A DNA stretch of 39,487 nt. Source: an uncultured Gammaproteobacteria bacterium. Lineage in GTDB: Bacteria; Patescibacteriota; Microgenomatia; Levybacterales; UBA12049. The position numbers and the translations under genes are program-made. A model generated the notes under the pieces. The model ran no database searches, was not told where the DNA came from, and saw only the letters and a list, made by a program, of their open reading frames with translations. The stretch covers positions 3,218 through 42,704 of the forward strand of contig CAYWVK010000001.1 in assembly GCA_964461865.1 (NCBI GenBank), in the 5' to 3' direction. The first letter of the stretch is position 1. Each line of letters starts with the position of its first letter. Shown here piece by piece: positions 2,459 to 39,487 of the stretch.

Positions 2459-2462
2459 AAAA

Positions 2463-2468: not shown

Positions 2469-2477
2469 TGATAAGAA

Positions 2478-2777: not shown

Positions 2778-2794
2778 GAATTTTGATTTAAAAT

Positions 2795-9491: not shown

Positions 9492-9538
9492 ATTAGGTAA
9501 AATAAGTAGAGTTTTAAAAGTTTATATTACCTCTTAAA

Positions 9539-15427: not shown

Positions 15428-16099
15428 ATGAAACCTTTATTAATCATAGCTAACTGGAAATCAAATAAGACCGCTATGGAAGCTGAAGAATGGATTAGAG
15501 AGGTTAAGAACTATAAACAAGAAGTAGAAAATATAGAGAATAAAGAAGTAATTATTTGTCCGCCCTTTACTCTTTTGCCAATTCTTAAAACTTTGTTTTT
15601 ACAAAACAATCTTAAGTTTAAACTAGGAGCGCAAGATATGTCTCCCTTCGATAAAGGTGCTTATACAGGTGAAATTAACGCAAGACAAATCAAGGAATTT
15701 GCAGAATATGTAATTATTGGACATTCTGAAAGAAGACAAAATTTTAATGAAAATGATAAAATACTTGGACAAAAAGTAGAAATGGCAGCAAATCATAATG
15801 TTTCTACAATATATTGTGTACAAAATATTTTAACCAGCGTGCCAAAAGAAGTAAAAGTGATTGCCTACGAACCGATTTTTGCAATTGGCAGCGGAAAGCC
15901 GGATACGCCTCAAAGCGCAAAAGAAGTTTCAATTGCATTTAAAGAAAAAAGCAGTAATATAGAAAAAGTAATTTATGGAGGAAGTGTTACGTCTGAAAAT
16001 GTTAATAGTTTTACAAAAGAAGATGGCATAGACGGAGTGTTAATAGGTGGAGCAAGTCTTAATCCCCAGGAGTTTATAAAAATAATAAAAAATGCGTAA
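15428..16099 (+). CDS. tpiA: Triosephosphate isomerase
   Basis: 'IIANWKSNKT', 'IIGHSERR', 'AYEPIFAIGSGK' and 'YGGSV' are the catalytic N/K, H and E motifs and the phosphate-binding loop. Confidence 0.9.
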   Translation: MKPLLIIANWKSNKTAMEAEEWIREVKNYKQEVENIENKEVIICPPFTLLPILKTLFLQNNLKFKLGAQDMSPFDKGAYTGEINARQIKEFAEYVIIGHSERRQNFNENDKILGQKVEMAANHNVSTIYCVQNILTSVPKEVKVIAYEPIFAIGSGKPDTPQSAKEVSIAFKEKSSNIEKVIYGGSVTSENVNSFTKEDGIDGVLIGGASLNPQEFIKIIKNA

Positions 16100-17180: not shown

Positions 17181-19360
17181 TATATTTTATATATTTTTGT
17201 ATTACCGTTTTTATAAATAATTTTTCCAAGCTTTTCAAATTTAACTTCATTAAGATCTGAATATTTTTCTTTTTCTAAGCTTCCAATAAAAACAAGAGAA
17301 ATGTGATATTTATTTATTAATTCTTTTGTTTTTATTAAATCTAATGATTCATATATGGTTTTAATATCATTAATTCTAGGAGCAGGGATGTCATATCTTC
17401 CTCTCCAAAGCCATTCATGAACAGTCCATCCTAAAACTGTTGGTAAGCCTGTATTTGAAGAGATTCTTGCATAATCAGTATAAGAATCTCCTTGTGCTTC
17501 AAGAATTACTGGTTGTTTTTTAATGTTTTTATTTAGCCAGATTATTGCATCATAATCATTGGGATAAGAAGTTTTTAGATATTTAACTCCATCTAATCCT
17601 TGTACATTTTTAAACTCTTGGTAATATGAATTTATTGAAAGATAAGGATAAATAAATATTGTTGATATTAAGATTAAGGAAAAAGCAAAATAAAAAATAA
17701 ATAATAATTTATTTAAATTATTATTTAAGCCTTTTCTAAAGCAAGAGAAAATACGAATAATGATATATGAGGATGAAATAGAAAGTAAAATAAATGCTTG
17801 ATAAACCATTTTAAACATGGTATTTGCTCTGTAGTGTGCAGGATATATGTCTTTTATGTAGATAAATTCAGGAATAATAATTAAAATAGTAGAGAATAAT
17901 ATCAATAAAATAATAAATTTATCTGTTTTTAAAAGCTTAAATGATTTTTGCCTTATTTTTTTAAATAAGAATATACAAAAAGAAAGTACCCAAAAATAAA
18001 AAAATCCGTATAAAATTAAAAGTTGCCAGATAGGTGATCTTTGACAATGATTTTCTTCAAATAAAAACGGTCCTATTTTTTTTATATTTACTAAAAAATC
18101 TGGTGGGCAAATAAAGCCAATTCCCGAAACAAAGGGTTTAAAAAACAAATTAAAAGGAAAAGAGAATATAAAATAACCGATAAAAAGTATTAAAGAAAAA
18201 AATATAGTTTTTGTGAATAATTTCTTATAAGTATCTTTTTTTAAAAGATAGATATAAAAAATAAAAATTATTGCCAAGATTAGGTAGATAGCTCCGTCCC
18301 AGGCGTTTGTCATATAAAGGACAGAGGTTAAAAAAGAAAGAAAAATAATCATAAAAAGGTTTATTTTTTCGTTTATAACAATATTTAAAAAAACAGCGAT
18401 TGTTAACAAGACAAAAGGAATATCTAAAACATGTCCATGTAAATCGGAGACAACCCATGAGTATATCGGAAATTCATGAATGGTGTTATAGATAAACCTG
18501 GTTGCATTTGGATACCAATATAGATTCGGAAAGGAGAAGGGTAAAAAATTAAGTAGCCATATTGGGACAGGGGTTTCATTTGCATAAGCTTTAAAAAAAG
18601 AGTAAAGAACATGTAAGTTTCCGGAAAATGTAACCAAAAATGCTGTTAATATTCCTGAAATTAATAAGCGGAGATGATTCACTTTTTTTATTAGTTTTTC
18701 TTTTGCTAAAAAATATAAATTAGAACCAATAGAAAATGAAGCGCTAAAACAAAAAGCAAAAACTAATGCTTGCATTAAATTGAACGTAACAGCGGAAGAG
18801 ATACCTGAAAGCTTTGTTAACATAGCAGTTATCAGATGTCCAAAATAGTAATAATTAATATTAAAAGAAGTAAACCAGATATCTTTTGCAGGAAAATAAT
18901 CTGTTCTTAAAATTGAATTTATTATTCCAAAATCCATAAATTTTTCAAGCCCATTAATGTTTGGTTGAAACATTTTTACAAAGGACCAAAAAACAAATAC
19001 ACTTAAAAAGATTATTTCTTCAATTAAATAAATTTTCCAATTTAACTTAAAAGAATTTATAAAATCTATTTTATTTAAATGCGGTATTTTTTTGTGTTTA
19101 TATTTAAAAAGAAAAAAATAATTAATAAAAAAAGCAATAATTAATATGAAAATAATACTTCCTTGAGTAAAAGAAAGAATCTTTACAGTACCTAAAACAA
19201 ATAAAGCATAAGCAGTAGCTATAATTCCTAAGATTTTAGAAAAGATGTAACCTCTATCGAAAAATTTTTTAAAAAAAGATGTCGTTATCGGTAAAAAAAT
19301 GATCCCAATAATAAAAACTATAAACCACCAAGGTAAGATGTAGTAGATATCAGAAAGCAT
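17177..19360 (-). CDS. DUF2298 / Chlor_Arch_YYY-domain polytopic membrane protein (putative GT-C-like glycosyltransferase)
   Basis: 727-aa protein with about 20 TM spans. The near-invariant family motif 'NYYYFGH' is encoded at 18836-18853. There is a C-terminal soluble domain. Confidence 0.6.
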   Translation of the reverse strand: MLSDIYYILPWWFIVFIIGIIFLPITTSFFKKFFDRGYIFSKILGIIATAYALFVLGTVKILSFTQGSIIFILIIAFFINYFFLFKYKHKKIPHLNKIDFINSFKLNWKIYLIEEIIFLSVFVFWSFVKMFQPNINGLEKFMDFGIINSILRTDYFPAKDIWFTSFNINYYYFGHLITAMLTKLSGISSAVTFNLMQALVFAFCFSASFSIGSNLYFLAKEKLIKKVNHLRLLISGILTAFLVTFSGNLHVLYSFFKAYANETPVPIWLLNFLPFSFPNLYWYPNATRFIYNTIHEFPIYSWVVSDLHGHVLDIPFVLLTIAVFLNIVINEKINLFMIIFLSFLTSVLYMTNAWDGAIYLILAIIFIFYIYLLKKDTYKKLFTKTIFFSLILFIGYFIFSFPFNLFFKPFVSGIGFICPPDFLVNIKKIGPFLFEENHCQRSPIWQLLILYGFFYFWVLSFCIFLFKKIRQKSFKLLKTDKFIILLILFSTILIIIPEFIYIKDIYPAHYRANTMFKMVYQAFILLSISSSYIIIRIFSCFRKGLNNNLNKLLFIFYFAFSLILISTIFIYPYLSINSYYQEFKNVQGLDGVKYLKTSYPNDYDAIIWLNKNIKKQPVILEAQGDSYTDYARISSNTGLPTVLGWTVHEWLWRGRYDIPAPRINDIKTIYESLDLIKTKELINKYHISLVFIGSLEKEKYSDLNEVKFEKLGKIIYKNGNTKIYKIY

Positions 19361-19386
19361 AATTAATAAGTTATTTTATTTTTATT

Positions 19387-21051
19387 TTATTTATAAGAGC
19401 AATTATTTTCATAAATATAGTATTGAGTAAGTTGGTTTTCGTATACTTTTTTAAAATTAGAGTCAAAAAAATCAAAATTAAAATTTTCATCTATGTTTTT
19501 AGTTAATTCAATATATTTTAAATTATATTCATTTAATTTATCACATGCATCATCAATATTTGAACTACCTAGGATCTCTTTTCTTATCTTATCTCTTTTA
19601 TTAGTATCGTATCCTTGTGACCAGGCAAAATAAGGCCATCCTAAAAATATTTTTCTTCCGGCAATGGAGGCAGGAGTGTATAAATACGAAGAGTTAAGAA
19701 AAATACTATCTTTTGGTGTATTTTTTATTATCCAGGATACGTCTTTATTTTTTGGATAATCGGTTAATATAACTTTATTGTCATTATAGATAGGAAAAAA
19801 ATCAATAATTCCAGAAAATGTTAAGAGAAGGATGAAAAATAAAACAACAGGTTTTAAGAAATTTCTCTTTTTCCAAAGCCAAATTAAAAAGTAAGAAGAA
19901 AACATCACTCCTATAATCATGAATAAGTTTATGAATTTATGATTTGCGGCAATTTCCACTGAAAATTGAAATATGTTAGCAATGATAAACAAGATTAAAA
20001 ACGAAACAAACACTTTTCTTTGAGTTTTTAAAGCAATCAAAAACCCAAATGGGATTAAAAGAATATGAAGGCCCAAATTATAAAACCAATAGTTTAAGAA
20101 TGAATATAAAGTTAATCTGTCGCTTATTAAATAACCGGGATCAATAAAGAAAGAAGAAGTTGAAAAGCCTGATTGGGTATACATGTAAAAAGGAATTGCG
20201 GTTATTAATCCAATAAGCATAAACACAATTAAAGAATAACGGTTTTTTTTAAAAAATATCGATAAGGAAATTGCAATTATTAATGTCATTGCATAAACAG
20301 CCATGTTTAAAAGAAAAGAAAAACCTAAGATAACGCCTAATACGATACTAAGCTTTAAAGAAATTTCCTTTTTACTTAAAATCTTTTTAAGAAATAAATA
20401 AACTAAAAATAATGACAGGGCATATGACATGCCAAGATGTCTTTGATTTGTGTAAATATTTAAATTCCAGAAAGCAGAAACTATTCCATCTCCATAGTAA
20501 GGAGCAAAAGAGGAAAAGCTTTTATTAGATATAATATCAACTAAAATATTATTTGAACTATTAAAATAAGATTTAAAAAAATAAACAAAACTTAAACTAC
20601 CGTTAAAAAGAAAAAATAAAACACTTAATATTCCTGTTGTTTTTGATTTAAAAATTAATTTAGCGGTTAAATAAATTATTATTAACAATCCGAAAAAACC
20701 TATAATAGATGGAATATTTAAAGCGTAATCAATTCTAAGTCCTATTTTTTCTAAAATTCCTGAAATTAAATAAAAAAGAAAATGATAATGAATCGGAGTT
20801 CCTGGAAAAAGAGGATATTCAGGCAAGAAATTATTACCTAAAGAAAAAGAGCGAATAAGGGGAATATGGCTGGCAAAATCACTCCATGCCTTAGTGGATA
20901 TAAGCATACTGCCATTTTCATAAGAAAAAGATGAAAACATTAACCAATAACTAAAAAACAGAGAAAATAATATTAAAGCAACTTCTATTTTATTTTTTTT
21001 AATAAGTTTTAGTTTTTTTTTAAAAAATTTATTCACAGCAAATTTTTGCAA
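19387..21051 (-). CDS. Large polytopic membrane protein, possible GT-C-like glycosyltransferase
   Basis: 554-aa protein with more than 12 TM spans and a C-terminal soluble domain of about 140 aa. The architecture resembles its neighbour. I see no diagnostic motif. Confidence 0.4.
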   Translation of the reverse strand: MQKFAVNKFFKKKLKLIKKNKIEVALILFSLFFSYWLMFSSFSYENGSMLISTKAWSDFASHIPLIRSFSLGNNFLPEYPLFPGTPIHYHFLFYLISGILEKIGLRIDYALNIPSIIGFFGLLIIIYLTAKLIFKSKTTGILSVLFFLFNGSLSFVYFFKSYFNSSNNILVDIISNKSFSSFAPYYGDGIVSAFWNLNIYTNQRHLGMSYALSLFLVYLFLKKILSKKEISLKLSIVLGVILGFSFLLNMAVYAMTLIIAISLSIFFKKNRYSLIVFMLIGLITAIPFYMYTQSGFSTSSFFIDPGYLISDRLTLYSFLNYWFYNLGLHILLIPFGFLIALKTQRKVFVSFLILFIIANIFQFSVEIAANHKFINLFMIIGVMFSSYFLIWLWKKRNFLKPVVLFFILLLTFSGIIDFFPIYNDNKVILTDYPKNKDVSWIIKNTPKDSIFLNSSYLYTPASIAGRKIFLGWPYFAWSQGYDTNKRDKIRKEILGSSNIDDACDKLNEYNLKYIELTKNIDENFNFDFFDSNFKKVYENQLTQYYIYENNCSYK

Positions 21052-22312
21052 CTTTTTGTCCTAATTCAACTGCATAGTTTACGCCTCTGTCCCAAGGATA
21101 AACTTGATCCATATTTGCTAAAAAAATGTTCTTATGAGGAGTTTTAATATCAGGAATTATTTTAGAATAATTTGTAAAAACAATTGGTTGTGCATAATTA
21201 CTTTTAAACAATTTGATATCAATAATGTCCTTTTTGTAATCTTTATTAATTTTTTTGAGAAATGGATCAAAAACAGCTAATAGTTCCTTTTTATTTTTAG
21301 AAAAATATAAACTATCTACAGGAAAATAATTTCCTATATAAACAATATTTTCATTATTGTAATTTTTTTTGTTTATAAAATTTGTATGTTCTACAATTGC
21401 CATAACCGGCGATTTTTTAGAACAAATATTTAGCCAATATGTACCATCTGTTAAAAAACTTTTTTTAAATCTGATAATTAAACTTATTGCTCCGATGCTT
21501 TTCAACTTATTTAAATTATTTTTATAAGTTTTGGAAAGATTATCTGTAGTTTTTAAAAATTCAAGAGTTGAAGAGGTAACAATAATTTTGTCGAAGATAA
21601 AAACTTTCTTTTTATTTTTATTATTTAAAACTTCAATAATTGTTTTTTCATCATTATTTTTTATTTTTATTATTTTACTTTTGAAAAAAAAATGCCCGTT
21701 TAATTTTTTTATTATTTTATAAAGAGAATTTTCAAATTCTAAAAAACCACCGACTGGATAAACAAGAGATGTTGTTCTTTTTTTAACTCTAGCCCAAAAC
21801 CAAGCAAGAGATATGTCCTTTTTATAATTTTTAAACTTATTTTCAAATAGTGGTTGCCAAATTAATTGATAGCCTTGTTTTCCCATTAGTAAGGGGAGTA
21901 GTTTATTGGCTTTTACTTTTTCTAATGGTTTCCAGAAGGGATTATAGCGAAGTAGGGCTAATGACATACCCATTCTTAATCGTTTTATAAGTGATAAAAG
22001 CGGAAAATTAATAAGGGTTAAGGGTGAGTCTAGTTGGTAAGTTTTTCCGTTTATAAGGCTTGAAGTTTTAGGTCTTAGTGTAATTAATTGTTGATTAATT
22101 TCTTCAGCTAAGTTTTTAACAGCGATATCATTTGTAAATAAATGATGATAATGGTTTTCAATAGACCATTTCCAATCTTTTTCTTTAAAACCTGAAGCAA
22201 GCCCTCCTAAGAAATTTTCTTTTTCAAAAATATAAACGTCATGACCTTTTTTTACCAAATCATAAGCAGCAGACAGGCCTGTAAATCCTGCTCCTAAAAT
22301 TGCAATTTTCAT
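21029..22312 (-). CDS. FAD/NAD(P)-binding oxidoreductase (amine-oxidase/phytoene-desaturase-like Rossmann class)
   Basis: N-terminal dinucleotide fold 'KIAILGAGFTGLSAAYDLVKKGHDVYIFEKENFLGGLA'. The C-terminal 'NMDQVYPWDRGVNYAVELGQKVA' is typical of this flavoprotein class. Confidence 0.65.
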   Translation of the reverse strand: MKIAILGAGFTGLSAAYDLVKKGHDVYIFEKENFLGGLASGFKEKDWKWSIENHYHHLFTNDIAVKNLAEEINQQLITLRPKTSSLINGKTYQLDSPLTLINFPLLSLIKRLRMGMSLALLRYNPFWKPLEKVKANKLLPLLMGKQGYQLIWQPLFENKFKNYKKDISLAWFWARVKKRTTSLVYPVGGFLEFENSLYKIIKKLNGHFFFKSKIIKIKNNDEKTIIEVLNNKNKKKVFIFDKIIVTSSTLEFLKTTDNLSKTYKNNLNKLKSIGAISLIIRFKKSFLTDGTYWLNICSKKSPVMAIVEHTNFINKKNYNNENIVYIGNYFPVDSLYFSKNKKELLAVFDPFLKKINKDYKKDIIDIKLFKSNYAQPIVFTNYSKIIPDIKTPHKNIFLANMDQVYPWDRGVNYAVELGQKVAKICCE

Positions 22313-24105: not shown

Positions 24106-24729
24106 TTAGCTTTTAAAGTATGCTGTTCCTTTTATGCTTAGCTTTAATATATTTCCTTTTTTTCGATCAGAAACATTATTAATGGTTATTGTTTCAAGCG
24201 ATAATATTCTTTGCATATTACTTAATGAACTTATAAACTTTACGATATTATTATAATCTCCCTCAATTGATATATTAAAATTGTAACTTGAATATTTTTT
24301 AGAAACTTTATTTTCAGATATAGCTTCAACTTGAAGAGTTTGTGCACTAATAATATCCACGCCGTTATTTTTTGCTAATGCTTCAATTTGGCCTATAAGT
24401 ACTGCGTTTTCCGGTGTCTTAGGAATAGCAGAGTAAACATCAACTAGGTCTCCTTGAAGATTAGCGTATTTTTCCTGAAGAATTGAGAGATTATTAATCT
24501 TTTGTTTTAGCTGTTCTTCAATAAGCTGATTATCTTTTAGTTCTTTTTGAAGTTTTGATATAGTTGATAATGTTGGTCCTATTGCAAAAATTCCAAAAAA
24601 ACAAAGAGTAATTAAAGTTAGAGCTAAGGTAATAAATTTTTTGTTTTTTTCCTCTTTAAAAGAGGGTAAAAGTTGTAAATATTTATTTTTTTGTAAATTA
24701 TTAAGCCAATCTTTTTTTATGGTTATCAT
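24106..24729 (-). CDS. pilO: Type IV pilus assembly protein PilO-like
   Basis: The architecture runs from a basic N-terminus through one TM span (FITLALTLITLCFFGIFAIGP) and a coiled coil (KLQKELKDNQLIEEQLKQKINNL) to a C-terminal alpha/beta domain ('IPKTPENAVLIGQIEALAKNNGV'). I chose ATG 24729, 1 nt after the pilN stop, rather than the track's 24810. Confidence 0.55.
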   Translation of the reverse strand: MITIKKDWLNNLQKNKYLQLLPSFKEEKNKKFITLALTLITLCFFGIFAIGPTLSTISKLQKELKDNQLIEEQLKQKINNLSILQEKYANLQGDLVDVYSAIPKTPENAVLIGQIEALAKNNGVDIISAQTLQVEAISENKVSKKYSSYNFNISIEGDYNNIVKFISSLSNMQRILSLETITINNVSDRKKGNILKLSIKGTAYFKS

Positions 24730-24730
24730 A

Positions 24731-25285
24731 TTATTTCTTTTTAATTTTATTATCCTTAATGCCTGCTGAAATTCCGAAAGTAATAAGTGATGTTGATGGT
24801 TTATTTTCAATTTTATCTACACTTAAAGTGTCAATTAAGGAATACTCCTTTAGCTCATTAACAAAAGACCCCAGTGCGGTTATAGAGTCTGTGCTAGCAC
24901 TAATTCTAATTTGATCCTCATAAAGAGAGAAATTATTAAAAATTATTCCTGATGGTGCAAAGTCTATAATATCACTAAATATTTTTATTTTTTCACTGGA
25001 TTGACTTGAAAATGTACTCGCAGCCAATAATCGATCCTGAAGGTTAATATACATTTCTTCATTTTCTTTAAAAAAATCTACAATTGCTTGTTCTTGTTTA
25101 ATTTTTTCATGAAGATCTATTAGTTGTTTGTCCAGGGTAAATCTATATATAAAAGCTGACAATGCGATTATTTCAACAACTATAACTACTATTCTGCCTA
25201 TATTTACAGACCATTTAATAATTTGATCAATGATATCAGTTTTGCCTGTTTTTAATAAATTTATATCAGCAACGTTTCTTGCCAT
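24731..25285 (-). CDS. pilN: Type IV pilus assembly protein PilN-like
   Basis: N-terminal 'ADINLLK' (the PilM-binding INLL motif), a single TM span, a coiled coil and a C-terminal ferredoxin-like region. Confidence 0.6.
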   Translation of the reverse strand: MARNVADINLLKTGKTDIIDQIIKWSVNIGRIVVIVVEIIALSAFIYRFTLDKQLIDLHEKIKQEQAIVDFFKENEEMYINLQDRLLAASTFSSQSSEKIKIFSDIIDFAPSGIIFNNFSLYEDQIRISASTDSITALGSFVNELKEYSLIDTLSVDKIENKPSTSLITFGISAGIKDNKIKKK

Positions 25286-25343: not shown

Positions 25344-25655
25344 TTATTTCTTTGTTTTTGTTTTAGTGGTTTTTTGTTTTGTTTTTTTAGTTACCTTTTT
25401 TGTTTTTGTAATTTTTAATTTTCCTGAGGCTATTTTTGCTAATTTTGATTTTAATCTCGCCGCTTTATTTTTGTGAATGATTCTTTTCTTGGAAGATTTA
25501 TCAATAATTACCGTCGCCTTTCTTATATTTTCAGCTAAAGGATTTTTAACAGCTTTTTTTACTAGCTTTTTATATTCTTTTTTAAGCTTATCGTTTTGGG
25601 CTGTTCTTTTTTTGTCTTTTCTTAATTTTTTCTTTGCAGATTTTATTACTGGCAT
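25344..25655 (-). CDS. rpsT: 30S ribosomal protein bS20 with a Lys/Thr-rich C-terminal extension
   Basis: 'MPVIKSAKKK...' and an exact 'IHKNKAAR' match to E. coli S20. An extra tail of about 24 aa reads 'LKITKTKKVTKKTKQKTTKTKTKK'. Confidence 0.9.
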   Translation of the reverse strand: MPVIKSAKKKLRKDKKRTAQNDKLKKEYKKLVKKAVKNPLAENIRKATVIIDKSSKKRIIHKNKAARLKSKLAKIASGKLKITKTKKVTKKTKQKTTKTKTKK

Positions 25656-25661
25656 CAGGCT

Positions 25662-25690
25662 ATTTTAGCATGCTATACTGTAAAAAACAA
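25662..25690 (-). promoter_or_regulatory. Promoter candidate TTGTTT-17-TAAAAT, 6 nt upstream of the rpsT ATG
   Basis: On the minus strand, the -35 is at 25685-25690 and the -10 at 25662-25667; ATG at 25655. Confidence 0.5.
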
Positions 25691-25693
25691 TAT

Positions 25694-27352
25694 ATGCCCA
25701 AGAAATTTTTTCAAAAAGGCCTCAATCTTTTGTTAAGGCGACAGACAAACATTTTATCTGCTGCATTTGTAATTATGGGTACGGTAGTTTTTTCTCAAGT
25801 TTTAGGTTTGATAAGACAAAGGCTTTTGGTGTCAATTTTTGGAGCATCGGATACGCTTGGAGTGTATTTGGTGGCATCAAAATTACCTGATTTTTTATTT
25901 CAACTAATAATTGCCGGAGCGTTATCTTCGGCATTTATACCAATTTTTTCTGATTATCTAGGTAAGAATAAAAGAAAAGAGGCACATTTTTTAGGATCAA
26001 CTCTACTTACTTTTAGCTTAATTATTTTTTGTGGTCTTTCAGTTTTTCTTTTAATTTTTGCAGAATATTTTTCAAGGCTTATCGCTCCGGGATTTTCAGA
26101 ACAACAAATTGTTTTAATGGCAAATTTGATGAGAATAATTATTTTTGGTGAAATTCTTTTTATAGTTGGTAGTTTTTTATCTTCGGTTCTTCAATCTTAC
26201 AATCATTTTTTTATTCCTGGCTTTGCAGCAGCTCTTTATAATTTAGGAATAATTGCGGGAATATTTTTTCTTTCCCCGTATTTTGGTATTTTTTCAGCAG
26301 CTTATGGAGTAATCCTGGGTGCATTCATTTTTATAGTTTTTCAATTACCGCTTATTAAAAAATTAGAATTTAATTTTCAACCTTCTCTTGCAATTAAAAA
26401 TAGTGGTGTTATTCAAGTTTTAAAACTAATGTGGCCTAGAACGATTTCCATTGCAATTTTTCAGTTAGGAGGAATAATTACAATTACACTTATTTCTTTT
26501 TTACCTTCCCCTGGTAGAAATTATGTAATATTTGATTATGCACAAACTCTTTTTTTTGCACCGGTTGTTCTTTTTGGACAAGCAATTGCTCAAGCAGCTT
26601 TTCCTGTTTTAGCAAGAGAGAAAGACAGATTGGGAGATTTTAAGGTAACTATAATTACCAGTTTAAAGCAAATGCTTTATCTGGTTTTGCCAATTTCAGT
26701 ATTGTTGTTAATACTTCGTATACCCATTGTTCGTCTTATTTACGGAGCAGCGCAATTTGATTGGCAGGCAACAGTTTTAACAGCGACAACCCTGGCTTTT
26801 TTTAGTGTTTCAATTTTTGCACAATCGTTAAATTATTTACTATCACGTGGTTTTTATGCGCTTCATGATACTAAAACCCCTCTTATTGTAGGAGCATTAA
26901 CTACCTGCTTAATGATTGTTTTAGGGGTACTATCAATTTTTGTGTTAAATCTTGAGGTCTGGGCTATTGCTGCATCTTTTTCTATTGCCAGTATTGTTAA
27001 TATTTTAATTTTGTTTATTTGCTTGGATAAAAAAACCGGTGGTTTTGATAAACTTTCCTTAAGTTATTCTTTATTAAAAATTATAGTAGCTACAATTTTT
27101 ACAGGATTTGCATTGTATGTACCGATTAAATTATTGGATCAGTTGGTTTTTGATACAACCAGAACAATAAATCTTTTGTTCCTAACCGGAATTTCTAGTT
27201 TTGCAGGTTTATCGTTATATCTATTTCTTACTTGGCTTTTTAATGTTAAAGAAGCGTCAATGTTTATTTTGCTTTTTAAGAAAATAGGTGATTGGAGACA
27301 AATACTTAAAACCAGTGAGGAGACAATAGATACTACCGCAACTAAGGTTTAA
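25694..27352 (+). CDS. murJ: Lipid II flippase MurJ (MviN)
   Basis: 'ILSAAFVIMGTVVFSQVLGLIRQRLLVSIFGASDTLGVYLVASKLPDFLFQLIIAGALSSAFIPIFS' is the MurJ N-terminal signature; 14-TM MOP-family layout. I chose ATG 25694. The track start at 25634 would overlap rpsT. Confidence 0.85.
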   Translation: MPKKFFQKGLNLLLRRQTNILSAAFVIMGTVVFSQVLGLIRQRLLVSIFGASDTLGVYLVASKLPDFLFQLIIAGALSSAFIPIFSDYLGKNKRKEAHFLGSTLLTFSLIIFCGLSVFLLIFAEYFSRLIAPGFSEQQIVLMANLMRIIIFGEILFIVGSFLSSVLQSYNHFFIPGFAAALYNLGIIAGIFFLSPYFGIFSAAYGVILGAFIFIVFQLPLIKKLEFNFQPSLAIKNSGVIQVLKLMWPRTISIAIFQLGGIITITLISFLPSPGRNYVIFDYAQTLFFAPVVLFGQAIAQAAFPVLAREKDRLGDFKVTIITSLKQMLYLVLPISVLLLILRIPIVRLIYGAAQFDWQATVLTATTLAFFSVSIFAQSLNYLLSRGFYALHDTKTPLIVGALTTCLMIVLGVLSIFVLNLEVWAIAASFSIASIVNILILFICLDKKTGGFDKLSLSYSLLKIIVATIFTGFALYVPIKLLDQLVFDTTRTINLLFLTGISSFAGLSLYLFLTWLFNVKEASMFILLFKKIGDWRQILKTSEETIDTTATKV

Positions 27353-32858: not shown

Positions 32859-33713
32859 ATGAGAAGATTTCTTTTTATTTTAGGACTTCTAATAACAACA
32901 ATTGGTATTTTTATTTTAATCGTGTACTTTTTTAACAAAGATTCGGGTAGAGGAGCGCTTTATGTAACTTCAAATCCTAAAAGCAAAGTATATTTAGATG
33001 GAAAATTGATTGGGGAAACTCCACTTTGTAAATGCGATGGAGATCAAACAATTCCTGCGGGTTCATATACTATAAAATTAATTCCAACAAAGGGAGATTT
33101 TAGAAGCTTTGAGGAAAGAATTACTATTTCCCCATCTGTTTTAACAGTAGTTGATAGAACTTTTGGTGAAGGAGCCTTTTCGTCGGGTAGTATTATAAGT
33201 TTAGTTAAATTAAATGAAAAAAACTTAACGGAACTTTCGGTAGTTACTTTTCCTGATAAGGCAATTTTAACGCTGGACAATAGTCAATCTCCTTATGGCG
33301 TTAGTCCTCTTTTATTAAAGGATTTAACAGAGTCGGATCACGAATTAAAAATAGCAAAAGAAGGATATGTCGATAAGGTTTTAAGAATCAGGACAATAAA
33401 GGGATATAGATTAGAGGCTACGGTAACGCTTTCTGTGTTACCTGATGTTTCATCAAGCTCTGCTTTTCCTGAAGTTACACCGACCAAAGCACCAATTGAA
33501 GAGGCAAGTCCATCAGCTAAAATAACAATACTTCAAACCCCAACAGGGTTTTTAAGAGTAAGAGAGGACGCAACCGTTTCATCAACAGAGATTACCAGAG
33601 TTAATCCGGGAGAAGAATACGAGTTTTTAGATGAAAAAAACGGGTGGTATAAGATTAAACTAAATGACAGTGAGCAAGGTTGGGTTAGTGGTCAATACGC
33701 AAAAAAAGAATAA
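32859..33713 (+). CDS. Membrane-anchored protein with two PEGA domains and a C-terminal bacterial SH3 domain
   Basis: N-terminal TM span. The PEGA-like repeats are 'LYVTSNPKSKVYLDGKLIGETPL' and 'VVTFPDKAILTLDNSQSPYGVSPLLLKDL...HELKIAKEGY'. The SH3b-like C-terminus is 'LRVREDATVSSTEITRVNPGEEYEFLDEKNGWYKIKL...GWVSGQY'. Confidence 0.65.
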   Translation: MRRFLFILGLLITTIGIFILIVYFFNKDSGRGALYVTSNPKSKVYLDGKLIGETPLCKCDGDQTIPAGSYTIKLIPTKGDFRSFEERITISPSVLTVVDRTFGEGAFSSGSIISLVKLNEKNLTELSVVTFPDKAILTLDNSQSPYGVSPLLLKDLTESDHELKIAKEGYVDKVLRIRTIKGYRLEATVTLSVLPDVSSSSAFPEVTPTKAPIEEASPSAKITILQTPTGFLRVREDATVSSTEITRVNPGEEYEFLDEKNGWYKIKLNDSEQGWVSGQYAKKE

Positions 33714-33726
33714 GTTTTATACCTTT

Positions 33727-34668
33727 TTAAGGGCCAATAAAATAGATTATAAAGATAACCAGAAATAGCCAAATAATAACAGTTGCTAAAAGCGGTTTAT
33801 CAGAAAGTAAGACCCTATCAGGACTTTCTCCTTCATTTTTCTCATAAATATCCTGAAGATAGCGCATTATTCCGTAAACAACAGGAATAATAGTTATCAT
33901 TAGCCACTTTTTTTGAAAGAATACAGGTAAAAAATCAGGAAGTAAAACGCCTAAGGCAATTTTTATCCCTTTTGGGTTTTCAAGAAAAGTAAAAAGTGAA
34001 TAAGTTATAAAGGTTGAGGTAGCAAACATGGAAGCGTAAATATCTAAAAGTTTTTCTGAGTATCGTGATAATGATTGTCTAACAGTTGTAATATTTGCAA
34101 TCTTACTATTAGAAAGAAGAGTTAGCTCAGATCTTCTTTTGCCAACAGCTAAAAAGAGAGAAACAGAAATGGTAGTTAACAACATCCATACGGAAATATG
34201 ATATCCGCTGGCAAATTCCCCTGCATATACCCTTAAAATATAACCCATGGCAATTGTTAAGATATCTAAGGCCGGTACGGTTTTAAATTTAAGTGAATAC
34301 AAAAATTGAAGCGCAAGATAAACAATTACGATTATAGTAAAGGTTGGAGTAATAGAAAGACTTAAAAGAAAAGACCCCAGCATTAAAATAATAGCAATAA
34401 TAATAGCTAAGGGAATTGGAACATCGCCTCTTGCTAATGGTCTAAATTTTTTAAAAGGGTGAAGCCTATCTTTTTTAATATCAAATAAGTCGTTAACAAT
34501 ATAAGTAGCAGAAGATAATCCGCAAAAAGCAATAAACGCTAAGAAAACCTTATCAAAGATTGTTTTTTCAAATAATTGGCCGGCGAAAATAATTGCCGTA
34601 AAAATTGCCAAGTTTTTAATCCATTGTCTTGGTCTTAAGAGTCTTAGTATGTTATACGCCATTTTCAT
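33727..34668 (-). CDS. UbiA-family prenyl-phosphate transferase resembling decaprenyl-phosphate phosphoribosyltransferase (Rv3806c-like)
   Basis: 'LLRPRQWIKNLAIFTAIIF' at the N-terminus, 'NDLFDIKKD' (NDxxDxxxD, encoded at 34468-34494), 'RPLARG', 'LDILTIAMGYILRVYAG' and about 9 TM spans. Confidence 0.6.
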   Translation of the reverse strand: MKMAYNILRLLRPRQWIKNLAIFTAIIFAGQLFEKTIFDKVFLAFIAFCGLSSATYIVNDLFDIKKDRLHPFKKFRPLARGDVPIPLAIIIAIILMLGSFLLSLSITPTFTIIVIVYLALQFLYSLKFKTVPALDILTIAMGYILRVYAGEFASGYHISVWMLLTTISVSLFLAVGKRRSELTLLSNSKIANITTVRQSLSRYSEKLLDIYASMFATSTFITYSLFTFLENPKGIKIALGVLLPDFLPVFFQKKWLMITIIPVVYGIMRYLQDIYEKNEGESPDRVLLSDKPLLATVIIWLFLVIFIIYFIGP

Positions 34669-35695
34669 TTTCGTTGTGTTTTATAGTAAGCTGAAGAAAA
34701 ATTATTCCTCCACCTACAATAATTATTAACATTATTATGGCAAATATTTTGCCCTTGCTCGACAAAAATAGAGAAATCGCCCCAAGCATAGCAGAAATTA
34801 ACCAATAAAACAACGCAATTTTTCTTTGTCCCCAATGTTTTTTTAAAAGTAAATGATGAAGATGTTTATTGTCGTGTCTGAAAGGAGATTTACCGTTTAA
34901 AATTCTTCTAAGGATAGTAAATAATCCGTCAATCATTGGAATTCCCATAACTAAAATTGCAGTTGCCAATTTTGCAGAAGAAAGAATAGATGCAACTGCA
35001 AGTAAAATATAAACAGAGGTTGCTCCGTATCCCGGAAATATTTTTGCAGGATAAAAATTAAAAACTAAAAAACCCAACGATGCACCGGCCACAATAAAGG
35101 AAAGTGTAGTACTTATCGTAGTATATTGATCGGTAGCATTAAAGCGAAGACTTAAAAGTCCAATTACAATTGCTGAAATTGCTACGATTCCAGGCATTTG
35201 TCCGTCAACTCCCTTACTCCAATTTAACATGTTCATTACCCAGACAATCCAAATAACAGCAACAACATATGAAAATATATCTCCCAAGAATAAAATACCT
35301 CCTAAAGGATTGGTAATAAAGGGAATGTTTGCACCTGCATAAACAACAGCAATGGCAACAAGAATATTTATTATAAATCTAAAATAGGGCGATAAATCAA
35401 ATTTATCATCAAGAACACCAACAACAAGAGAAATAAAGGCGGCAAAAAAAAGGACAATGGTAATTTTAGTTATTGGAAGAAAAATAATTGAAGCTAAAAG
35501 ACAACCTAAAAATAATGGAATACCACCGCCTCTTGGTATAGGTTTTTTATGTAAAATTGCCGGGTGTTTTCTTTTTTTTGGATCATCAATTAGTTTATAT
35601 TTTTTAATAAAAATTAAAGATAGCGGTACTAAAATAACAGTTGCTAAAAAAGCGATTGAAAAAGGTAAAAGTATAAAACTTAAAATATTTTGCAT
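34652..35695 (-). CDS. MraY/WecA-family polyprenyl-phosphate N-acetylhexosamine-1-phosphate transferase (WecA/TagO-like)
   Basis: 'HKKPIPRGGGI', 'LDDKFDLSP' (the DDxxD Mg site), 'MNMLNWSKGVDGQMPG' (N..N..G.DG) and 'DNKHLHHLLL'. 347 aa with about 10-11 TM spans, closer in size to WecA than MraY. Confidence 0.75.
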   Translation of the reverse strand: MQNILSFILLPFSIAFLATVILVPLSLIFIKKYKLIDDPKKRKHPAILHKKPIPRGGGIPLFLGCLLASIIFLPITKITIVLFFAAFISLVVGVLDDKFDLSPYFRFIINILVAIAVVYAGANIPFITNPLGGILFLGDIFSYVVAVIWIVWVMNMLNWSKGVDGQMPGIVAISAIVIGLLSLRFNATDQYTTISTTLSFIVAGASLGFLVFNFYPAKIFPGYGATSVYILLAVASILSSAKLATAILVMGIPMIDGLFTILRRILNGKSPFRHDNKHLHHLLLKKHWGQRKIALFYWLISAMLGAISLFLSSKGKIFAIIMLIIIVGGGIIFLQLTIKHNENENGV

Positions 35696-36049
35696 TTATA
35701 AAATAATTTGAATAGTTCTTATTATAAAAAGAAGCGTTGTAATTGAAATTAATAAATTAGTTAAAGTTAATATTCTTGGAACTAAAGGGTTATTTTTATA
35801 AATAAAAGATGAGAAGAAAAAATTAAAAATAGTAATTATTATTGCTATGATAATTGGGATAAAAATTCCAAAGGTAGCAATTAATCTTTGTTCTCCCCAA
35901 GGAAGCTGATTGAAAAGAGGAATAAACAATGGCAATTTTGAGTAGTAAAAAAAGACATAAATTATAGTAATTAATAAAAATAAAAAAGTTAGCAAATATC
36001 CTCTTGAAATTATGCGGTCGTTTTTTACGTCCTTAAAGAACTCTTTCAT
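35696..36049 (-). CDS. Small 3-4 TM membrane protein of unknown function
   Basis: 117-aa hydrophobic ORF wedged between the GT-C gene (17-nt overlap) and the WecA-like gene (0-nt gap). Confidence 0.45.
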   Translation of the reverse strand: MKEFFKDVKNDRIISRGYLLTFLFLLITIIYVFFYYSKLPLFIPLFNQLPWGEQRLIATFGIFIPIIIAIIITIFNFFFSSFIYKNNPLVPRILTLTNLLISITTLLFIIRTIQIIL

Positions 36050-37505
36050 AAATATAAACCTTATCTATTACGATACTGGGCTTGTAATGTAAAAGTGGAA
36101 AAGGAAAGTTATTCATATAGGACATCATAATAATATATTTAGGTTTAACATTTTCAAGTGCTTCGGCAGTATTAATTAAACCATCTTTATAGTTATTAAT
36201 ATGATAAGCAACTGTATATTTGCCCGGAGGAAGTTTGTTGGTTAATTTATAGAGTTGTGGATTGTTTCCCCAAATAAATATTGAATCTTCTTCTGTAGTG
36301 TTTTCATTAATATATTGGGCAATTTGATAATCAATAGGTGTTTTTTTATCGAAAAATCTTTGATATTCGGCAACACTTTTGTTATTTGTTATAAAGTTAA
36401 TGAAGTTAGCATAATATGGAGTTACTTTTGTGTAAATCCAAAAATATTCAAATGCAATTACTAGTAAGAATAATATAAATAGAATATTAAGTTTTTTAAG
36501 TCTTTTTTCTTCAAAGATAAGACCGGCTAAAAGTGAAAAGCTTGGAAGTAAAACTAAAAGATAATGAGTATAGGGGCGTTGAGAAAACATCGCATTGAAA
36601 ACCGAAAAACCAAGCCATATCCAAATCAAAATTGTTTGTGTAGTTAGTTTATGTCTTTTTAGATAAATAAAAGCAATAAAAATAATTAATAAAATTAATT
36701 TTAATATCAAAAAGCCTTGTGGAATTATTAGTTTATTATGATAACCCACATAATTAATATTTGATAAAAAAGTTGCAGTTATAAAGTCTTGAAATGCTCC
36801 TTGTGTAAAAAAGAAAATAACAGTTGTTAGAATTGGAATTAAAAAACCGACAATAAGCCAACAGAGATCTTTTAATCCACTAGCGAGTTTTTTATAAAGT
36901 TTTCCGGAAAAATTATCGGGAGTTTTAATAATTATTAAAAATACAATAAGTGCAGCTAAATCAAATATAGCTATAATTTTAAAAAGAAAAGCAATTCCCA
37001 ATACCAATCCGGACCAAAAAAACATTTTGTTTTCCCATTTTGCTTTAAAATGGTCAATTGCCAGATAAAATGCCGAAAGAATAAAAAACAACATAAAATT
37101 TTCGGCATTAGCAATATTACCCTCAATTATCGGAAGACCAAAAAATACCGTAAAAACAAAAGTAGAAACGTAAATTGCCACCCTTTTCTTAAATAATTTT
37201 TTAGCAAGGTAGAAAAAAGTTATTATTGCTAATATTCCAAAAATTATTGAAGCCAATCTTAGTAAAAATTGGTCTCCGTTAAAAATGCCATAAAAAACAT
37301 ATAAGAGAGGAGGTTTATTATCAAAAATTCCTTGATATAAAAGGCGACCTTTATTTATTCCCATTCCCAATGTTTGATAAACACCCTCATCTCCGTACCA
37401 GTAAGGTTCAAAAAGAGAAGGGAGTCTTAAAAAGAAGAATAAAACAAGACTGCTTAAAAGAAACCAAAAGCTTTTGCTTTTTTCAATAACCCTTAAGGTT
37501 TTCAT
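36033..37505 (-). CDS. GT-C (ArnT/PMT_2-like) polytopic glycosyltransferase
   Basis: 490-aa protein with about 12 TM spans. The first loop 'LFEPYWYGDEGVY' carries the acidic DE motif typical of GT-C enzymes that use polyprenyl-phosphate sugars. There is a C-terminal soluble domain. Confidence 0.55.
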   Translation of the reverse strand: MKTLRVIEKSKSFWFLLSSLVLFFFLRLPSLFEPYWYGDEGVYQTLGMGINKGRLLYQGIFDNKPPLLYVFYGIFNGDQFLLRLASIIFGILAIITFFYLAKKLFKKRVAIYVSTFVFTVFFGLPIIEGNIANAENFMLFFILSAFYLAIDHFKAKWENKMFFWSGLVLGIAFLFKIIAIFDLAALIVFLIIIKTPDNFSGKLYKKLASGLKDLCWLIVGFLIPILTTVIFFFTQGAFQDFITATFLSNINYVGYHNKLIIPQGFLILKLILLIIFIAFIYLKRHKLTTQTILIWIWLGFSVFNAMFSQRPYTHYLLVLLPSFSLLAGLIFEEKRLKKLNILFILFLLVIAFEYFWIYTKVTPYYANFINFITNNKSVAEYQRFFDKKTPIDYQIAQYINENTTEEDSIFIWGNNPQLYKLTNKLPPGKYTVAYHINNYKDGLINTAEALENVKPKYIIMMSYMNNFPFPLLHYKPSIVIDKVYIYERVL

Positions 37506-38998
37506 ATTTTTTCCGTTACTTTATATTCTAACCTTTTTCCGAGTAAAAGTTGAGTATGAGAAACAAGAGCCGGAAGAGATGAAAGGAAAAAGCCTACGAT
37601 AGGAAGCAAAACAAACTCTATTGGAAACAAAGCTTGAGTCTTTTTACTGGGGCCTGGAAGATTTTTTGGCCTGTTTTTAATATCAACAATAAGCATTGCT
37701 AAAAGAGAAATCATGCAGGATGTAAGAATAAATCCGGCAAGTTTAGGCAGGTTATAGCCAAGAGTTGTTCTTGAGAAAACAGGATTAATTAATGGCATAA
37801 TATTTGCTGCTATAGTTATTATAAACCAATTTGTTGGCCATAGAAAATGATCTCTTACAACAGGAAAAATCATCAAAGTTTTTCTGATAAATGGTACGTT
37901 TGGTACAGTAAGCCACCATTTAATAAATAAGTAGTCATCACTTGCTCCCCAAGCCCAGCGTTTTTCTTGCTCATATTTATTTTTTAAACTACTAATATAT
38001 CCCGGAGATTGTGCAGCATCCATAGATGTTCTTAAAAATATTGGTTCAGCCCAAACATTGCCACTTTTTTTATAAAATGCCTTAAAGAAAATTCGATAAT
38101 CTTCAGGAATTACATCCGTATCCCAAAATCCAATCTCTTTCATAAGCGTTAAGGAAGTTGAATAAGTAGCATTTGTAATTAGCCGGTTTTTATGAATTAA
38201 AACGGCGGTGTTCCAAAGGCTGCCAAAAAAAGACACAACTCTTGTAGGAGCGGGAACTTTCCAGATATTTGAATAATAAACTGTTGCCGATTGCCAAAAT
38301 TTATTATGTCTTTTTTCATCAGATAAAAATTTATTTGAGAGATAAGCAAAGTATTGTTTATCAAAAATTGAATCAGCGTCAACAGAGGATATTGTTGCAA
38401 AATCAGGATCAATAATTTTGCCATCCACTAATTTTTTATAAGCTAATTTTCCAGCATATGCTTCATTAGATGATTTTCCTTTAACCTCGCCATCAATATC
38501 TGGATGATAAGCTGCAAAAATTCCGCCAAAAACATCTTTAAATTCATTAATTAATTCATTTGCTTTTTTCTTTGCATCTTTTTCTCGTTTTTCCATCGCT
38601 AAAACAACGAAGATCTTTTTAGCAGGAAAAGTTTGTTTAGCTAGGGAGTCAATGGTAATTTTTAATTTTTCTACTTTTTCTGTGTAGTTTGGAAGGATTG
38701 CAATGTGGCTCATTTTTTCATAATTTTTAAGTTCTTTTGCTTTTTTATTCCAATCAATTTTTTCTGCTTTATTTATTTTTCTTGAAGAAATATATGATGT
38801 TATGGCTAGGGAAAAAGATTTATAAAACCAGTAGATATCAAAAAATAAAATAAAATAAGCAAGTTGGTAGGGAATTAAAAAAGATCCCCATACAGGAAAT
38901 GTGATTAAAGACCAGGAAAAAAGTCCAGGTAAAATCTCCAAGGCTCTTCTGGTTTTAACGGGATAACGTGTAAAAATTTTATCTAAAAACTTTTGCAT
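37502..38998 (-). CDS. Membrane-embedded family-2 glycosyltransferase, processive-synthase-like (D, DxD, ED, QxxRW)
   Basis: Two N-terminal TM spans, a GT-A core and C-terminal TM spans. The GT-A motifs are 'IAILPNYTEK', 'SSVDADS', 'IPEDYR' and 'QEKRW' (encoded at 37955-37969). Confidence 0.7.
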   Translation of the reverse strand: MQKFLDKIFTRYPVKTRRALEILPGLFSWSLITFPVWGSFLIPYQLAYFILFFDIYWFYKSFSLAITSYISSRKINKAEKIDWNKKAKELKNYEKMSHIAILPNYTEKVEKLKITIDSLAKQTFPAKKIFVVLAMEKREKDAKKKANELINEFKDVFGGIFAAYHPDIDGEVKGKSSNEAYAGKLAYKKLVDGKIIDPDFATISSVDADSIFDKQYFAYLSNKFLSDEKRHNKFWQSATVYYSNIWKVPAPTRVVSFFGSLWNTAVLIHKNRLITNATYSTSLTLMKEIGFWDTDVIPEDYRIFFKAFYKKSGNVWAEPIFLRTSMDAAQSPGYISSLKNKYEQEKRWAWGASDDYLFIKWWLTVPNVPFIRKTLMIFPVVRDHFLWPTNWFIITIAANIMPLINPVFSRTTLGYNLPKLAGFILTSCMISLLAMLIVDIKNRPKNLPGPSKKTQALFPIEFVLLPIVGFFLSSLPALVSHTQLLLGKRLEYKVTEKI

Positions 38999-39032: not shown

Positions 39033-39487
39033 CTAGAAGTTAAAAACAGTATGAGCATTTTTAGTAGTTTTTTCAATAACTGTTTCTATTTTTTCTTTCT
39101 TAATTTTAGCAATGAATTCGGCCACAATTATAACATAAGAAGGCTCATTTCGACTACCCCTATGAGGAATGGGAGTTAGATAAGGAGCGTCAGTTTCCAA
39201 TAAGATTCTATCCAGCGGGGCATATTTAACTAAATCAGAAAGTGGTGTGTTTTCACCTTTGGCAATTCCTTTGTAAGAAATATTGCCATCAAAACCGATG
39301 AAAAAACCAAGCTCTAGCACTTTTTTTAAGAAATCAATATCTCCGGAAAAACAATGAAAAAGACCGGGGATGTTTTTTAATAAATTTTTATTCGCAACTA
39401 AAATATTTAGAATTTCTTCTCCAGCTTGTCGATTATGGATTTGTAAAGGAAGGTCTAACTTATTTGCAATTTCTATTTGTTTTATAA
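39033..39487 (-). CDS. tatD: TatD-family metal-dependent hydrolase (DNase), 5'-truncated by the window edge
   Basis: My hand translation past the track's GTG 39320 stays open to the window end: '...LPLQIHNRQAGEEILNIL...GLFHCFSGDIDFLKKVLELGFFIGFDGNISYK...LLETDAPYLTPIPHRGSRNEPSYV'. These are TatD signatures. Confidence 0.8.
   Translation of the reverse strand, partial: IKQIEIANKLDLPLQIHNRQAGEEILNILVANKNLLKNIPGLFHCFSGDIDFLKKVLELGFFIGFDGNISYKGIAKGENTPLSDLVKYAPLDRILLETDAPYLTPIPHRGSRNEPSYVIIVAEFIAKIKKEKIETVIEKTTKNAHTVFNF

Follow-up and report, generated by a model that had tools for sequence, protein, structure and literature searches.

In Mycobacterium tuberculosis, the step catalysed by Rv3806c starts arabinan synthesis and has been proposed as a drug target. 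The mycobacterial arabinogalactan pathway is built from WecA, GlfT2, Rv3806c, Rv3807c, DprE1/E2, the Aft and Emb GT-C enzymes and Lcp1. Related logic has been described as three-component pentofuranose systems, with ORF15-ORF14-ORF12 of Citrobacter youngae O1/O2 (Kelly et al. 2024, PMC11127046). PPPRS makes polyprenyl-P-ribose-5-P from phosphoribosyl pyrophosphate (PRPP), a phosphatase trims the product, optional epimerases lead to xylose or arabinose, a flippase exports the lipid-linked sugar and a GT-C enzyme transfers it to a glycan on the outer side; the Citrobacter O1 prototype has no epimerase, and its final sugar is ribofuranose (PMC11127046). The stretch of DNA analysed here (the window, 39,487 nucleotides) covers positions 3,218 to 42,704 of contig CAYWVK010000001.1 in assembly GCA_964461865.1, placed by GTDB in the Levybacterales (Patescibacteriota; Microgenomatia). 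It carries a five-gene operon at 33727–38998 for which the three-component pentofuranose system is, by analogy, the closest described logic. The operon is tentatively read as a core envelope-glycan pathway of the Levybacteria and other Microgenomates (candidate phyla radiation), in which a WecA-like enzyme would supply a primer, a GT2 enzyme would make an exported backbone and a GT-C enzyme would add pentofuranose, probably ribofuranose; this reading falls a little short of probable.

The operon consists of the following genes, from upstream to downstream:

37502–38998, minus strand: BcsA/hyaluronan synthase (HAS)-like GT2, 498 aa, Pfam Glyco_trans_2_3
36033–37505, minus strand: GT-C fold glycosyltransferase, 490 aa, Pfam PMT_2/PMT
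35696–36049, minus strand: small protein with three transmembrane (TM) helices, 117 aa, no Pfam or NCBIfam family
34652–35695, minus strand: WecA-like GT4 of the polyprenyl-phosphate N-acetylhexosamine-1-phosphate transferase (PNPT) class, 347 aa, Pfam Glycos_transf_4
33727–34668, minus strand: UbiA protein of the Rv3806c type (PPPRS/DPPRS), 313 aa, NCBIfam NF008978

A first-pass annotation, made from the sequence and its open reading frames (ORFs), had proposed this operon, and its description proved accurate: all five ORFs were recovered, the junctions of −4, −17, 0 and −17 nt follow again from the ORF coordinates, every quoted motif was relocated by script (QEKRW and NDLFDIKKD to the base), and Pfam, NCBIfam and structure searches bore out the gene assignments. 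Each of the four enzymes (GT2, GT-C, GT4 and UbiA) passes its Pfam gathering threshold and each of the five proteins has hundreds to thousands of homologues, so the ORFs are not chance. The GC content of the window is about 30%. Metagenomes from bioreactors, anaerobic digesters and wastewater contain DNA of the organism carrying the operon. Scans of the window for Rfam families and tRNAs gave no matches, and its promoter and terminator counts equal the level of shuffled sequence. The enzyme classes, PRPP-site residues, folds and synteny reported below are computed; from them we infer which sugar is donated and to what acceptor, how GT2 and GT4 are connected, and attachment to the wall.

The locus shares with the systems of Kelly et al. 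a UbiA-type PPPRS gene clustered with a GT-C gene, and it keeps N, D, D and D in the catalytic loops. It differs from them in having no fused HAD phosphatase and no MATE or GtrA flippase, and its GT-C is PMT_2/GT39-like. The Levybacterial set also includes a BcsA-like synthase and a PNPT resembling WecA, lies among housekeeping genes rather than in an O-antigen locus, and appears core rather than serotype-diversifying. With mycobacterial arabinogalactan synthesis it has in common an Rv3806c homologue with kept substrate-binding residues, the clustering of PNPT, GT2, GT-C and UbiA, and an LCP ligase in the genome. In the Levybacterial case, however, the operon has no DprE1, DprE2 or PAP2 phosphatase linked to it, which leaves arabinose without support; the GT2 belongs to the membrane synthases, unlike soluble polymerases of the GlfT2 type, the GT-C shows no specific likeness to Aft or Emb enzymes, and the host is a candidate-phyla-radiation bacterium of about 30% GC without a mycolate envelope. 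In the arabinofuranosylation of Pseudomonas aeruginosa pilin (PPPRS, DprE1/E2 homologues and the GT-C enzyme TfpW), a PPPRS orthologue likewise supplies lipid-linked pentofuranose to a GT-C; there, the acceptor is pilin and the epimerases are clustered, whereas the Levybacterial operon has no linked epimerase.

The UbiA protein is the best-defined part of the operon. Its two motifs lie as follows:

34612–34635, minus strand: RPRQWIKN
34468–34494, minus strand: NDLFDIKKD

By sequence it is a member of the polyprenyl-phosphate 5-phosphoribosyltransferase family, with the corresponding predicted activity. It scores 235.6 bits against NCBIfam NF008978 (decaprenyl-phosphate phosphoribosyltransferase, cutoff 207), and its PDB matches are Rv3806c entries only (8j8j, E 8.8e-41, and 8j8k), with no other UbiA-superfamily structure at E up to 0.01. 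The structural study of Rv3806c lists the residues binding Mg2+ and the ribose, 5-phosphate and pyrophosphate of PRPP, and notes that the phosphoribose-binding residues are not common to ordinary UbiA enzymes (PMC10994848). In an HMMER alignment with Rv3806c, 12 of the 13 substrate-binding residues are kept (R22, K28, Y70, N73, D74, D77, K87, R90, Q135, Y138, K143 and Y157), the sole change being K208 to Q198, and all residues for the 5-phosphate and ribose are present. The DPPR-synthase type assigned in the first-pass annotation thus holds on three counts: the model score, the only PDB family matched and the substrate-binding residues. The models for heme o synthase, ChlG and 4-hydroxybenzoate prenyltransferase (UbiA) reach only 24–33 bits, and the best other, non-phosphoribosyltransferase prenyltransferase model 55 bits. 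Clustering with quinone or heme prenyltransferases was not seen, and an identity as a quinone, heme or chlorophyll prenyltransferase is ruled out by these scores, the PDB matches and the PRPP-site residues. A Christensenella homologue (survey locus L031, 5931–7481) is a 516-aa HAD-UbiA fusion with the architecture of Citrobacter ORF15; by contrast, the Levybacterial enzyme has no fused phosphatase.

The GT-C enzyme carries one characteristic loop-1 motif:

37383–37397, minus strand: YGDEG

Its model indicates a bona fide GT-C_A fold with the loop-1 Asp-Glu. Pfam scores are 39.6 bits for PMT_2 and 31.6 bits for PMT, and database names of its homologues read GT39 or phospholipid carrier-dependent glycosyltransferase. 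The AlphaFold2 model (pLDDT 90) has a soluble C-terminal α/β domain from about residue 360, and Y37, D39 and E40 of loop 1 are invariant. Foldseek matches the model to AglB/STT3/PglB, DPY19, AftB, Pmt, AftD and ALG6; hhalign gives ArnT 0.8%. An extracytoplasmic reaction with a polyprenyl-phosphate-linked donor would follow from the GT-C class, and the adjoining UbiA gene suggests which donor is used.

The GT2 enzyme contains four motifs:

38372–38380, minus strand: DAD (DxD)
38096–38107, minus strand: PEDY (ED at 38099–38104)
37955–37969, minus strand: QEKRW
37508–37525, minus strand: YKVTEK, of the (F/Y)xVTxK gating-loop type, in the cytosolic C-terminal tail

By sequence and model, its class as a BcsA/hyaluronan-synthase-like membrane-embedded synthase is well supported. 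The Pfam match is weak (Glyco_trans_2_3, 34.9 bits), phmmer found no PDB sequence match, and identity to solved synthases is only 11–14%. The family is large, with more than 3800 word-index matches and 1836 clusters at 50% identity, 306 of them with E up to 1e-30; an alignment of 75 sequences underlies the conservation counts and the AlphaFold2 model (pLDDT 95.5, pTM 0.93). The model shows two long helices at the N-terminus, a GT-A domain, QxxRW on an interface helix and more helices towards the C-terminus, with about 4–6 TM helices in all. Foldseek against the PDB placed BcsA, CvHAS (Chlorella virus), XlHAS1 (Xenopus) and Chs1 (yeast) first, with E down to 3e-9 and alignments of more than 500 columns that cover the TM regions; a protein without a membrane-synthase fold was not what emerged, in keeping with the processive-synthase pattern noted in the first-pass annotation. 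With hhalign, E. coli BcsA reached 96.3% probability with the catalytic motifs aligned, against 2% for ArnC and 0.1% for the GtrB homologue YfdH. The family profile matched the QxxRW-plus-TM region of chitin synthase weakly (E 0.0046). A GtrB/ArnC/DPMS-type polyprenyl-phosphate sugar synthase is disfavoured by the hhalign values, by the lack of GtrB/DPMS-type structures among the top 50 Foldseek matches and by stand-alone homologues: remote homologues (26–30% identical) often occur singly among housekeeping genes with no GT-C or flippase nearby, which fits a self-sufficient synthase.

Conservation within the 75 GT2 sequences follows the catalytic motifs. D207, D209, Q344 and R347 do not vary, only E or D occurs at E299, and D300 is D in 72 and E in 3. 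Within (F/Y)xVTxK, Y/F492 is kept in 74, V494 in 55, T495 in 58 and K497 in 74. In BcsA and CesA, FxVTxK belongs to the gating loop and contacts UDP, and enzymes mutated in it are inactive (PMC10592267). In the Levybacterial GT2 this motif, which the first-pass annotation did not list, lies after the last TM helix at the extreme C-terminal tail, an unusual place. The enzyme resembles BcsA/CesA, HAS and chitin synthase in its GT-A domain with DxD, ED and QxxRW, its interface and flanking TM helices and its (F/Y)xVTxK, but differs in having no PilZ domain, no BcsB-like partner and fewer TM helices, and in carrying the gating-type motif on the tail rather than between IF3 and a TM helix.

The remaining two genes appear to form a pair. 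Their conserved segments are:

35396–35410, minus strand: GT4 motif DDKFD
35201–35233, minus strand: GT4 motif NMLNWSKGVDG (NxxNxxxGVDG)
34853–34864, minus strand: GT4 motif HLHH
35882–35935, minus strand: highly conserved loop LPxxxPxFNQLPWGxxRL of the small TM protein

The assignment of the GT4 to the WecA-like PNPT class is well supported by sequence. It scores 88.7 bits against Pfam Glycos_transf_4, 109 bits against the WecA model TIGR02380 (cutoff 326), 74 bits against the archaeal MraY-like model and 50 bits against MraY (cutoff 192). It is 28% identical to E. coli WecA over 279 aa (E 5e-21), with DDxxD, NxxNxxDGxDG and the HIHH loop all aligned. Because the TIGR02380 score lies under its cutoff, the protein is WecA-like and not a WecA orthologue; a role as the MraY of the cell is ruled out by the model scores and by the alignment to the MraY sequence, which reaches 45 bits over only 112 aa. 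The small TM protein has no family in NCBIfam or, even at E 10, in Pfam. It has 636 homologues; among the matches listed, all 120 are 117–128 aa long, and those with names belong to Patescibacteria/Levybacteria. In two distant Patescibacteria (L032, 1485–2987; L028, 211–1713), the GT4 is 500 aa long and carries an equivalent segment as an N-terminal extension: the small-TM profile matches residues 22–95 of that protein at 18 bits, position and topology correspond, and P44, W51 and G52 are kept. Given these fusions and the 0-nt junction, the small protein probably serves the GT4 as an accessory or as a detached N-terminal module. A GtrA/SMR-type flippase was considered for it and rejected, as there was no Pfam match at E 10 and hhalign was negative (E. 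coli GtrA (YfdG) 2.3%, ArnF 0.1%). In L032 and L028, an OmpR-type response regulator gene stands between GT4 and UbiA, and the downstream genes encode a membrane protein with Wzy_C (O-antigen ligase/polymerase-like) and a TPR protein.

Conservation was surveyed in 33 loci of GTDB species representatives, found with the UbiA protein, and in 80 loci returned by a metagenome scan with a GT2 alignment. The five genes have the same order and orientation in 24 of the 33; among the others, three are cut by contig ends, and from two (L011 and L025) the GT-C alone is missing. Of the 80 metagenome loci, 32 hold all five genes in order, down to 45–50% GT2 identity, most of the others being truncated. Operon conservation, across 24 species-level genomes and 32 metagenome contigs, is strong; non-conservation was not seen. 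The GT-C is the least fixed part, absent from the operon at four loci and multiplied at others. In distant lineages, GT2 and GT-C are separated by one or two extra GT-Cs of the PMT_2 type and a DUF2079 protein, an arrangement to be expected where several GT-Cs draw on a lipid-linked donor produced in cis. Extra paralogues lie at 5909–7210 in L080, at 9513–10943 and 13061–14419 in L082, at 1700–3091 in L097 and at 14458–16041 in L098; the PMT_2 paralogues are about 430–460 aa long with a WGDE motif, and the others are a DUF2079 protein and one full PMT+PMT_4TMC protein.

Clustering of flanking ORFs identified MetRS, TatD, GroES/EL, HrcA, GrpE, DnaK, LepA, MurJ and a convergent PEGA/SH3 protein as conserved neighbours. 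Two of these adjoin the operon directly:

32859–33713, plus strand: membrane-anchored extracytoplasmic protein, PEGA-PEGA-S/T/P-rich linker-SH3b (PEGA 48.5 bits, SH3_3 48.9 bits)
39033–39487, open to the window edge: TatD-family hydrolase, 34 nt upstream of GT2

The PEGA/SH3 protein is next to and convergent with the operon in 57 loci and may be an extracytoplasmic partner or acceptor. In L118, the gene of a PEGA protein (2132–3073) overlaps the beginning of the gene of a remote GT2 homologue. In relatives, TatD often overlaps the GT2 start by 4 nt, with MetRS preceding TatD, and co-transcription of TatD with GT2 is likely. A role for TatD as the missing phosphatase or a sixth member was set aside: it accompanies MetRS here as it does in other bacteria, so that housekeeping synteny offers the more economical reading and probably explains its position. 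The MetRS-TatD pairing is also known in Bacillus. Third-party records of metagenome-assembled genomes that carry the operon at 65–90% identity are labelled 'uncultured Gammaproteobacteria bacterium'; their gene content and low GC fit Levybacteria, and the label is probably a taxonomic error.

The helper functions of the described pentofuranose systems are not linked to the operon. The first-pass annotation had reported no DprE1- or DprE2-like gene in the window, and Pfam scans of every ORF of at least 90 aa agree; FAD_binding_4, SDR, PAP2, HAD, GtrA and an additional MATE protein were likewise absent from these ORFs, and none of these families appears among the conserved neighbours of about 110 loci, with contig ends and unseen genome regions limiting every claim of absence at loci. 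The sole MOP-superfamily protein in the window is MurJ, 6 kb off. The sole flavoenzyme, at 21029–22312, is of the phytoene-desaturase/amine-oxidase type, and there is no evidence for it as a DprE1 substitute. A phosphoribose phosphatase may be encoded elsewhere in the genome.

The operon can be placed in a stepwise scheme. On the cytoplasmic face, the UbiA enzyme would transfer ribose-5-phosphate from PRPP to polyprenyl phosphate, an activity suggested by its class, and an unlinked phosphatase would then dephosphorylate the product to polyprenyl-phosphate-ribofuranose. The donor sugar most likely remains ribose, as the first-pass annotation had suggested, because no epimerase is linked to the operon. 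After flipping, the GT-C would add pentofuranose to a glycan outside the membrane, in some lineages through several GT-C paralogues; the fold is that of the modelled enzyme, and the donor and acceptor are putative. Synthesis and export of the backbone would most likely fall to the BcsA/HAS-like GT2, with a UDP-sugar as substrate. The WecA-like GT4, with the small TM module, would form a polyprenyl-diphosphate-N-acetylhexosamine primer, which could prime the synthase, as in synthase-dependent O-antigen synthesis, or alternatively give a lipid-diphosphate end for LCP ligation to peptidoglycan. Wall polymers that rely on WecA and LCP enzymes are a precedent for the latter, and the window does encode an LCP ligase. 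That the five genes are coupled is indicated by their overlapping or abutting frames and by the shared order in the 24 genomes and 32 metagenome contigs. Salmonella O:54 (WbbE/WbbF), a WecA-primed synthase-dependent O-antigen, offers a likeness, with its WecA-type primer and a HAS/NodC-like processive GT2 that polymerises and exports; unlike it, the Levybacterial set shows no WbbE-type adaptor transferase and is coupled to a pentofuranose donor pathway and GT-Cs. The pathway model of the first-pass annotation is therefore partly supported: it is reasonable and unproven, and it is altered in the role of the small TM protein, in the variable GT-C and in the lack of synteny with the LCP gene. A more integrated version, in which a single membrane 'factory' makes the main wall or envelope glycan of Microgenomates, is unlikely. 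In it, the PNPT held by the small TM protein would prime the GT2 and the GT-C would ribofuranosylate the emerging chain from polyprenyl-phosphate-ribose, giving a lipid-primed, synthase-dependent, co-translocationally pentosylated wall polymer; if true, this would be the first core-function use of the mycobacterial-type PRPP-to-lipid pentose route outside Actinobacteria.

Several observations weigh against the envelope-glycan pathway as a whole. Neither a phosphoribose phosphatase nor a flippase, two of the three defining helpers, was found in the operon, the window or the roughly 110 syntenic neighbourhoods. The LCP gene to which the first-pass annotation had assigned polymer attachment is real (16092–17180, LytR_cpsA_psr, 119 bits), but it lies 16.5 kb from the operon and is not among its conserved neighbours, so attachment by this protein has no synteny support. 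RNA support for co-transcription was not found, the sequence being present in DNA metagenome runs only. TM-scores of the GT2 to solved synthases are only 0.45–0.53, and W348 of its QxxRW is W in 57 and H in 17 of the 75 family members. A specific relationship of the GT-C to arabinofuranosyltransferases is unsupported: its profile has no PDB sequence match, AftB ranks 13th in Foldseek, below oligosaccharyltransferases, and no affinity specific to arabinofuranosyl- or ribofuranosyltransferases was seen there. Finally, subsets of the operon occur apart. The operon lacks the GT-C at L011, L025, L076 and L077 and the UbiA gene at L063; GT2+GT-C pairs with no GT4 or UbiA nearby occur at L106, L109 and L114, and the GT2 stands alone at L083 and L108 (also L117 and L126–L128). 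The five genes may therefore be two sub-modules and not one pathway.

This last point leads to the reading that two independent modules share one transcription unit, the GT2 and GT-C(s) making and modifying an exported β-glycan and the small TM protein, GT4 and UbiA feeding a separate lipid-linked pathway, so that no single polymer results. The separated GT2+GT-C pairs and lone GT2 genes just listed speak for it, as do the loci that keep GT2, small TM-GT4 and UbiA without the GT-C (L011, L025 and L076, and L028 and L032, where the GT4 is fused). It is nevertheless rather unlikely, since in Levybacteria and related lineages the five-gene set, with its overlapping frames, persists intact over deep divergence, and since the PPPRS product has no known use but as a GT-C donor or donor precursor, the only linked GT-Cs being those of the operon. 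A different division of labour would have the GT2 act as a single-transfer lipid glycosyltransferase, making a polyprenyl-phosphate-hexose or a glycolipid anchor, while GT-Cs polymerise outside to give a lipoarabinomannan-like lipoglycan. QxxRW-type GT2 enzymes with lipid acceptors exist, ceramide glucosyltransferase being an example. The substitution of W348 by H in 17 of 75 members, the small number of TM helices and a remote homologue (L114) in a GtrA-GT2-GT-C-like arrangement that resembles the classical three-component system fit this possibility, but the hhalign preference for BcsA over ArnC and GtrB, the position of GtrB/DPMS structures outside the top 50 Foldseek matches, the conserved FxVTxK gating-loop motif typical of cellulose synthases and the several remote homologues standing alone without a GT-C make it distinctly unlikely.

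Another reading is protein O-glycosylation: the GT39/PMT-like GT-C would place lipid-linked pentofuranose on Ser/Thr of surface proteins (pilins, PEGA/SH3), as TfpW does with arabinofuranose on Pseudomonas pilin. The GT-C does fall in the PMT/PMT_2 families, its Foldseek list is led by the protein-modifying enzymes OST, DPY19 and Pmt, the neighbouring PEGA/SH3 protein has an S/T/P-rich linker and is syntenic in 57 loci, PilN and PilO are encoded in the window, a full PMT+PMT_4TMC protein follows UbiA in L098, and pilin arabinosylation in Pseudomonas employs a PPPRS orthologue (PMC11127046). Against this, the PMT Pfam scores are weak, synteny in compact genomes also covers plainly unrelated housekeeping genes, and no role is left for the BcsA-like GT2 or the WecA-like GT4, the best-conserved partners; there is little chance that the operon serves this purpose. 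It is extremely improbable that the UbiA gene encodes a conventional aromatic or heme prenyltransferase and that the operon is unrelated to pentofuranose: the match to the general Pfam UbiA family would allow it, but the scores of the other models lie far below the 235.6 bits for DPPRS, and the PRPP 5-phosphate and ribose residues present here are not conserved in other UbiA enzymes (PMC10994848).

Other parts of the window also encode envelope-related functions. A tight minus-strand cluster at 17177–22312 converges on the LCP gene, with which it shares 4 nt at that gene's end. It encodes a DUF2298/Chlor_Arch_YYY protein (727 aa, about 14 TM helices), a 554-aa protein of 10 TM helices that matches no family but has a long first loop like that of GT-C enzymes, and a FAD oxidoreductase of the PRK07233 type (371 bits). 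The cluster is a possible second glycan module. At 5502–8809, a 517-aa protein of 11 TM helices (no family, GT-C-like topology) is convergent with a 585-aa TreT/GT4-type (GT-B) glycosyltransferase, their 3' ends overlapping by 4 nt. Further genes of this kind are:

12591–13562: FemAB-family peptidyltransferase
25634–27352: MurJ
24106–25285: PilN/PilO
3790–4734: class-A beta-lactamase-family protein
4983–5453: TspO/MBR protein

Each enzyme class in the operon is already known, and public annotation already names the UbiA homologues. What is so far undescribed is the combination of PPPRS and GT-C with a BcsA-like synthase and a PNPT with a detachable small module, together with the absence of a linked phosphatase, flippase and epimerase and the fixed housekeeping-region position in a candidate-phyla-radiation lineage. 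No literature linking this pathway to Patescibacteria or Microgenomates was found in the searchable library. To our knowledge, there is almost no experimental knowledge of the cell envelope in the candidate phyla radiation.

The position of the operon in a housekeeping region and its conservation across deep divergence suggest a core function. Were the envelope-glycan reading true, these bacteria would share the Rv3806c step from PRPP to polyprenyl phosphate and carry a pentofuranose-containing surface glycan, for which ribofuranose or arabinofuranose could serve as a chemical marker in enrichments. The locus would also bring to light a divergent cellulose-synthase-like family with an unusual C-terminal gating motif, and it would offer a natural test of how a pentofuranose system operates when phosphatase, flippase and epimerase are all unlinked. 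The concept of three-component pentofuranose systems, published in 2024, would also gain in taxonomic reach.

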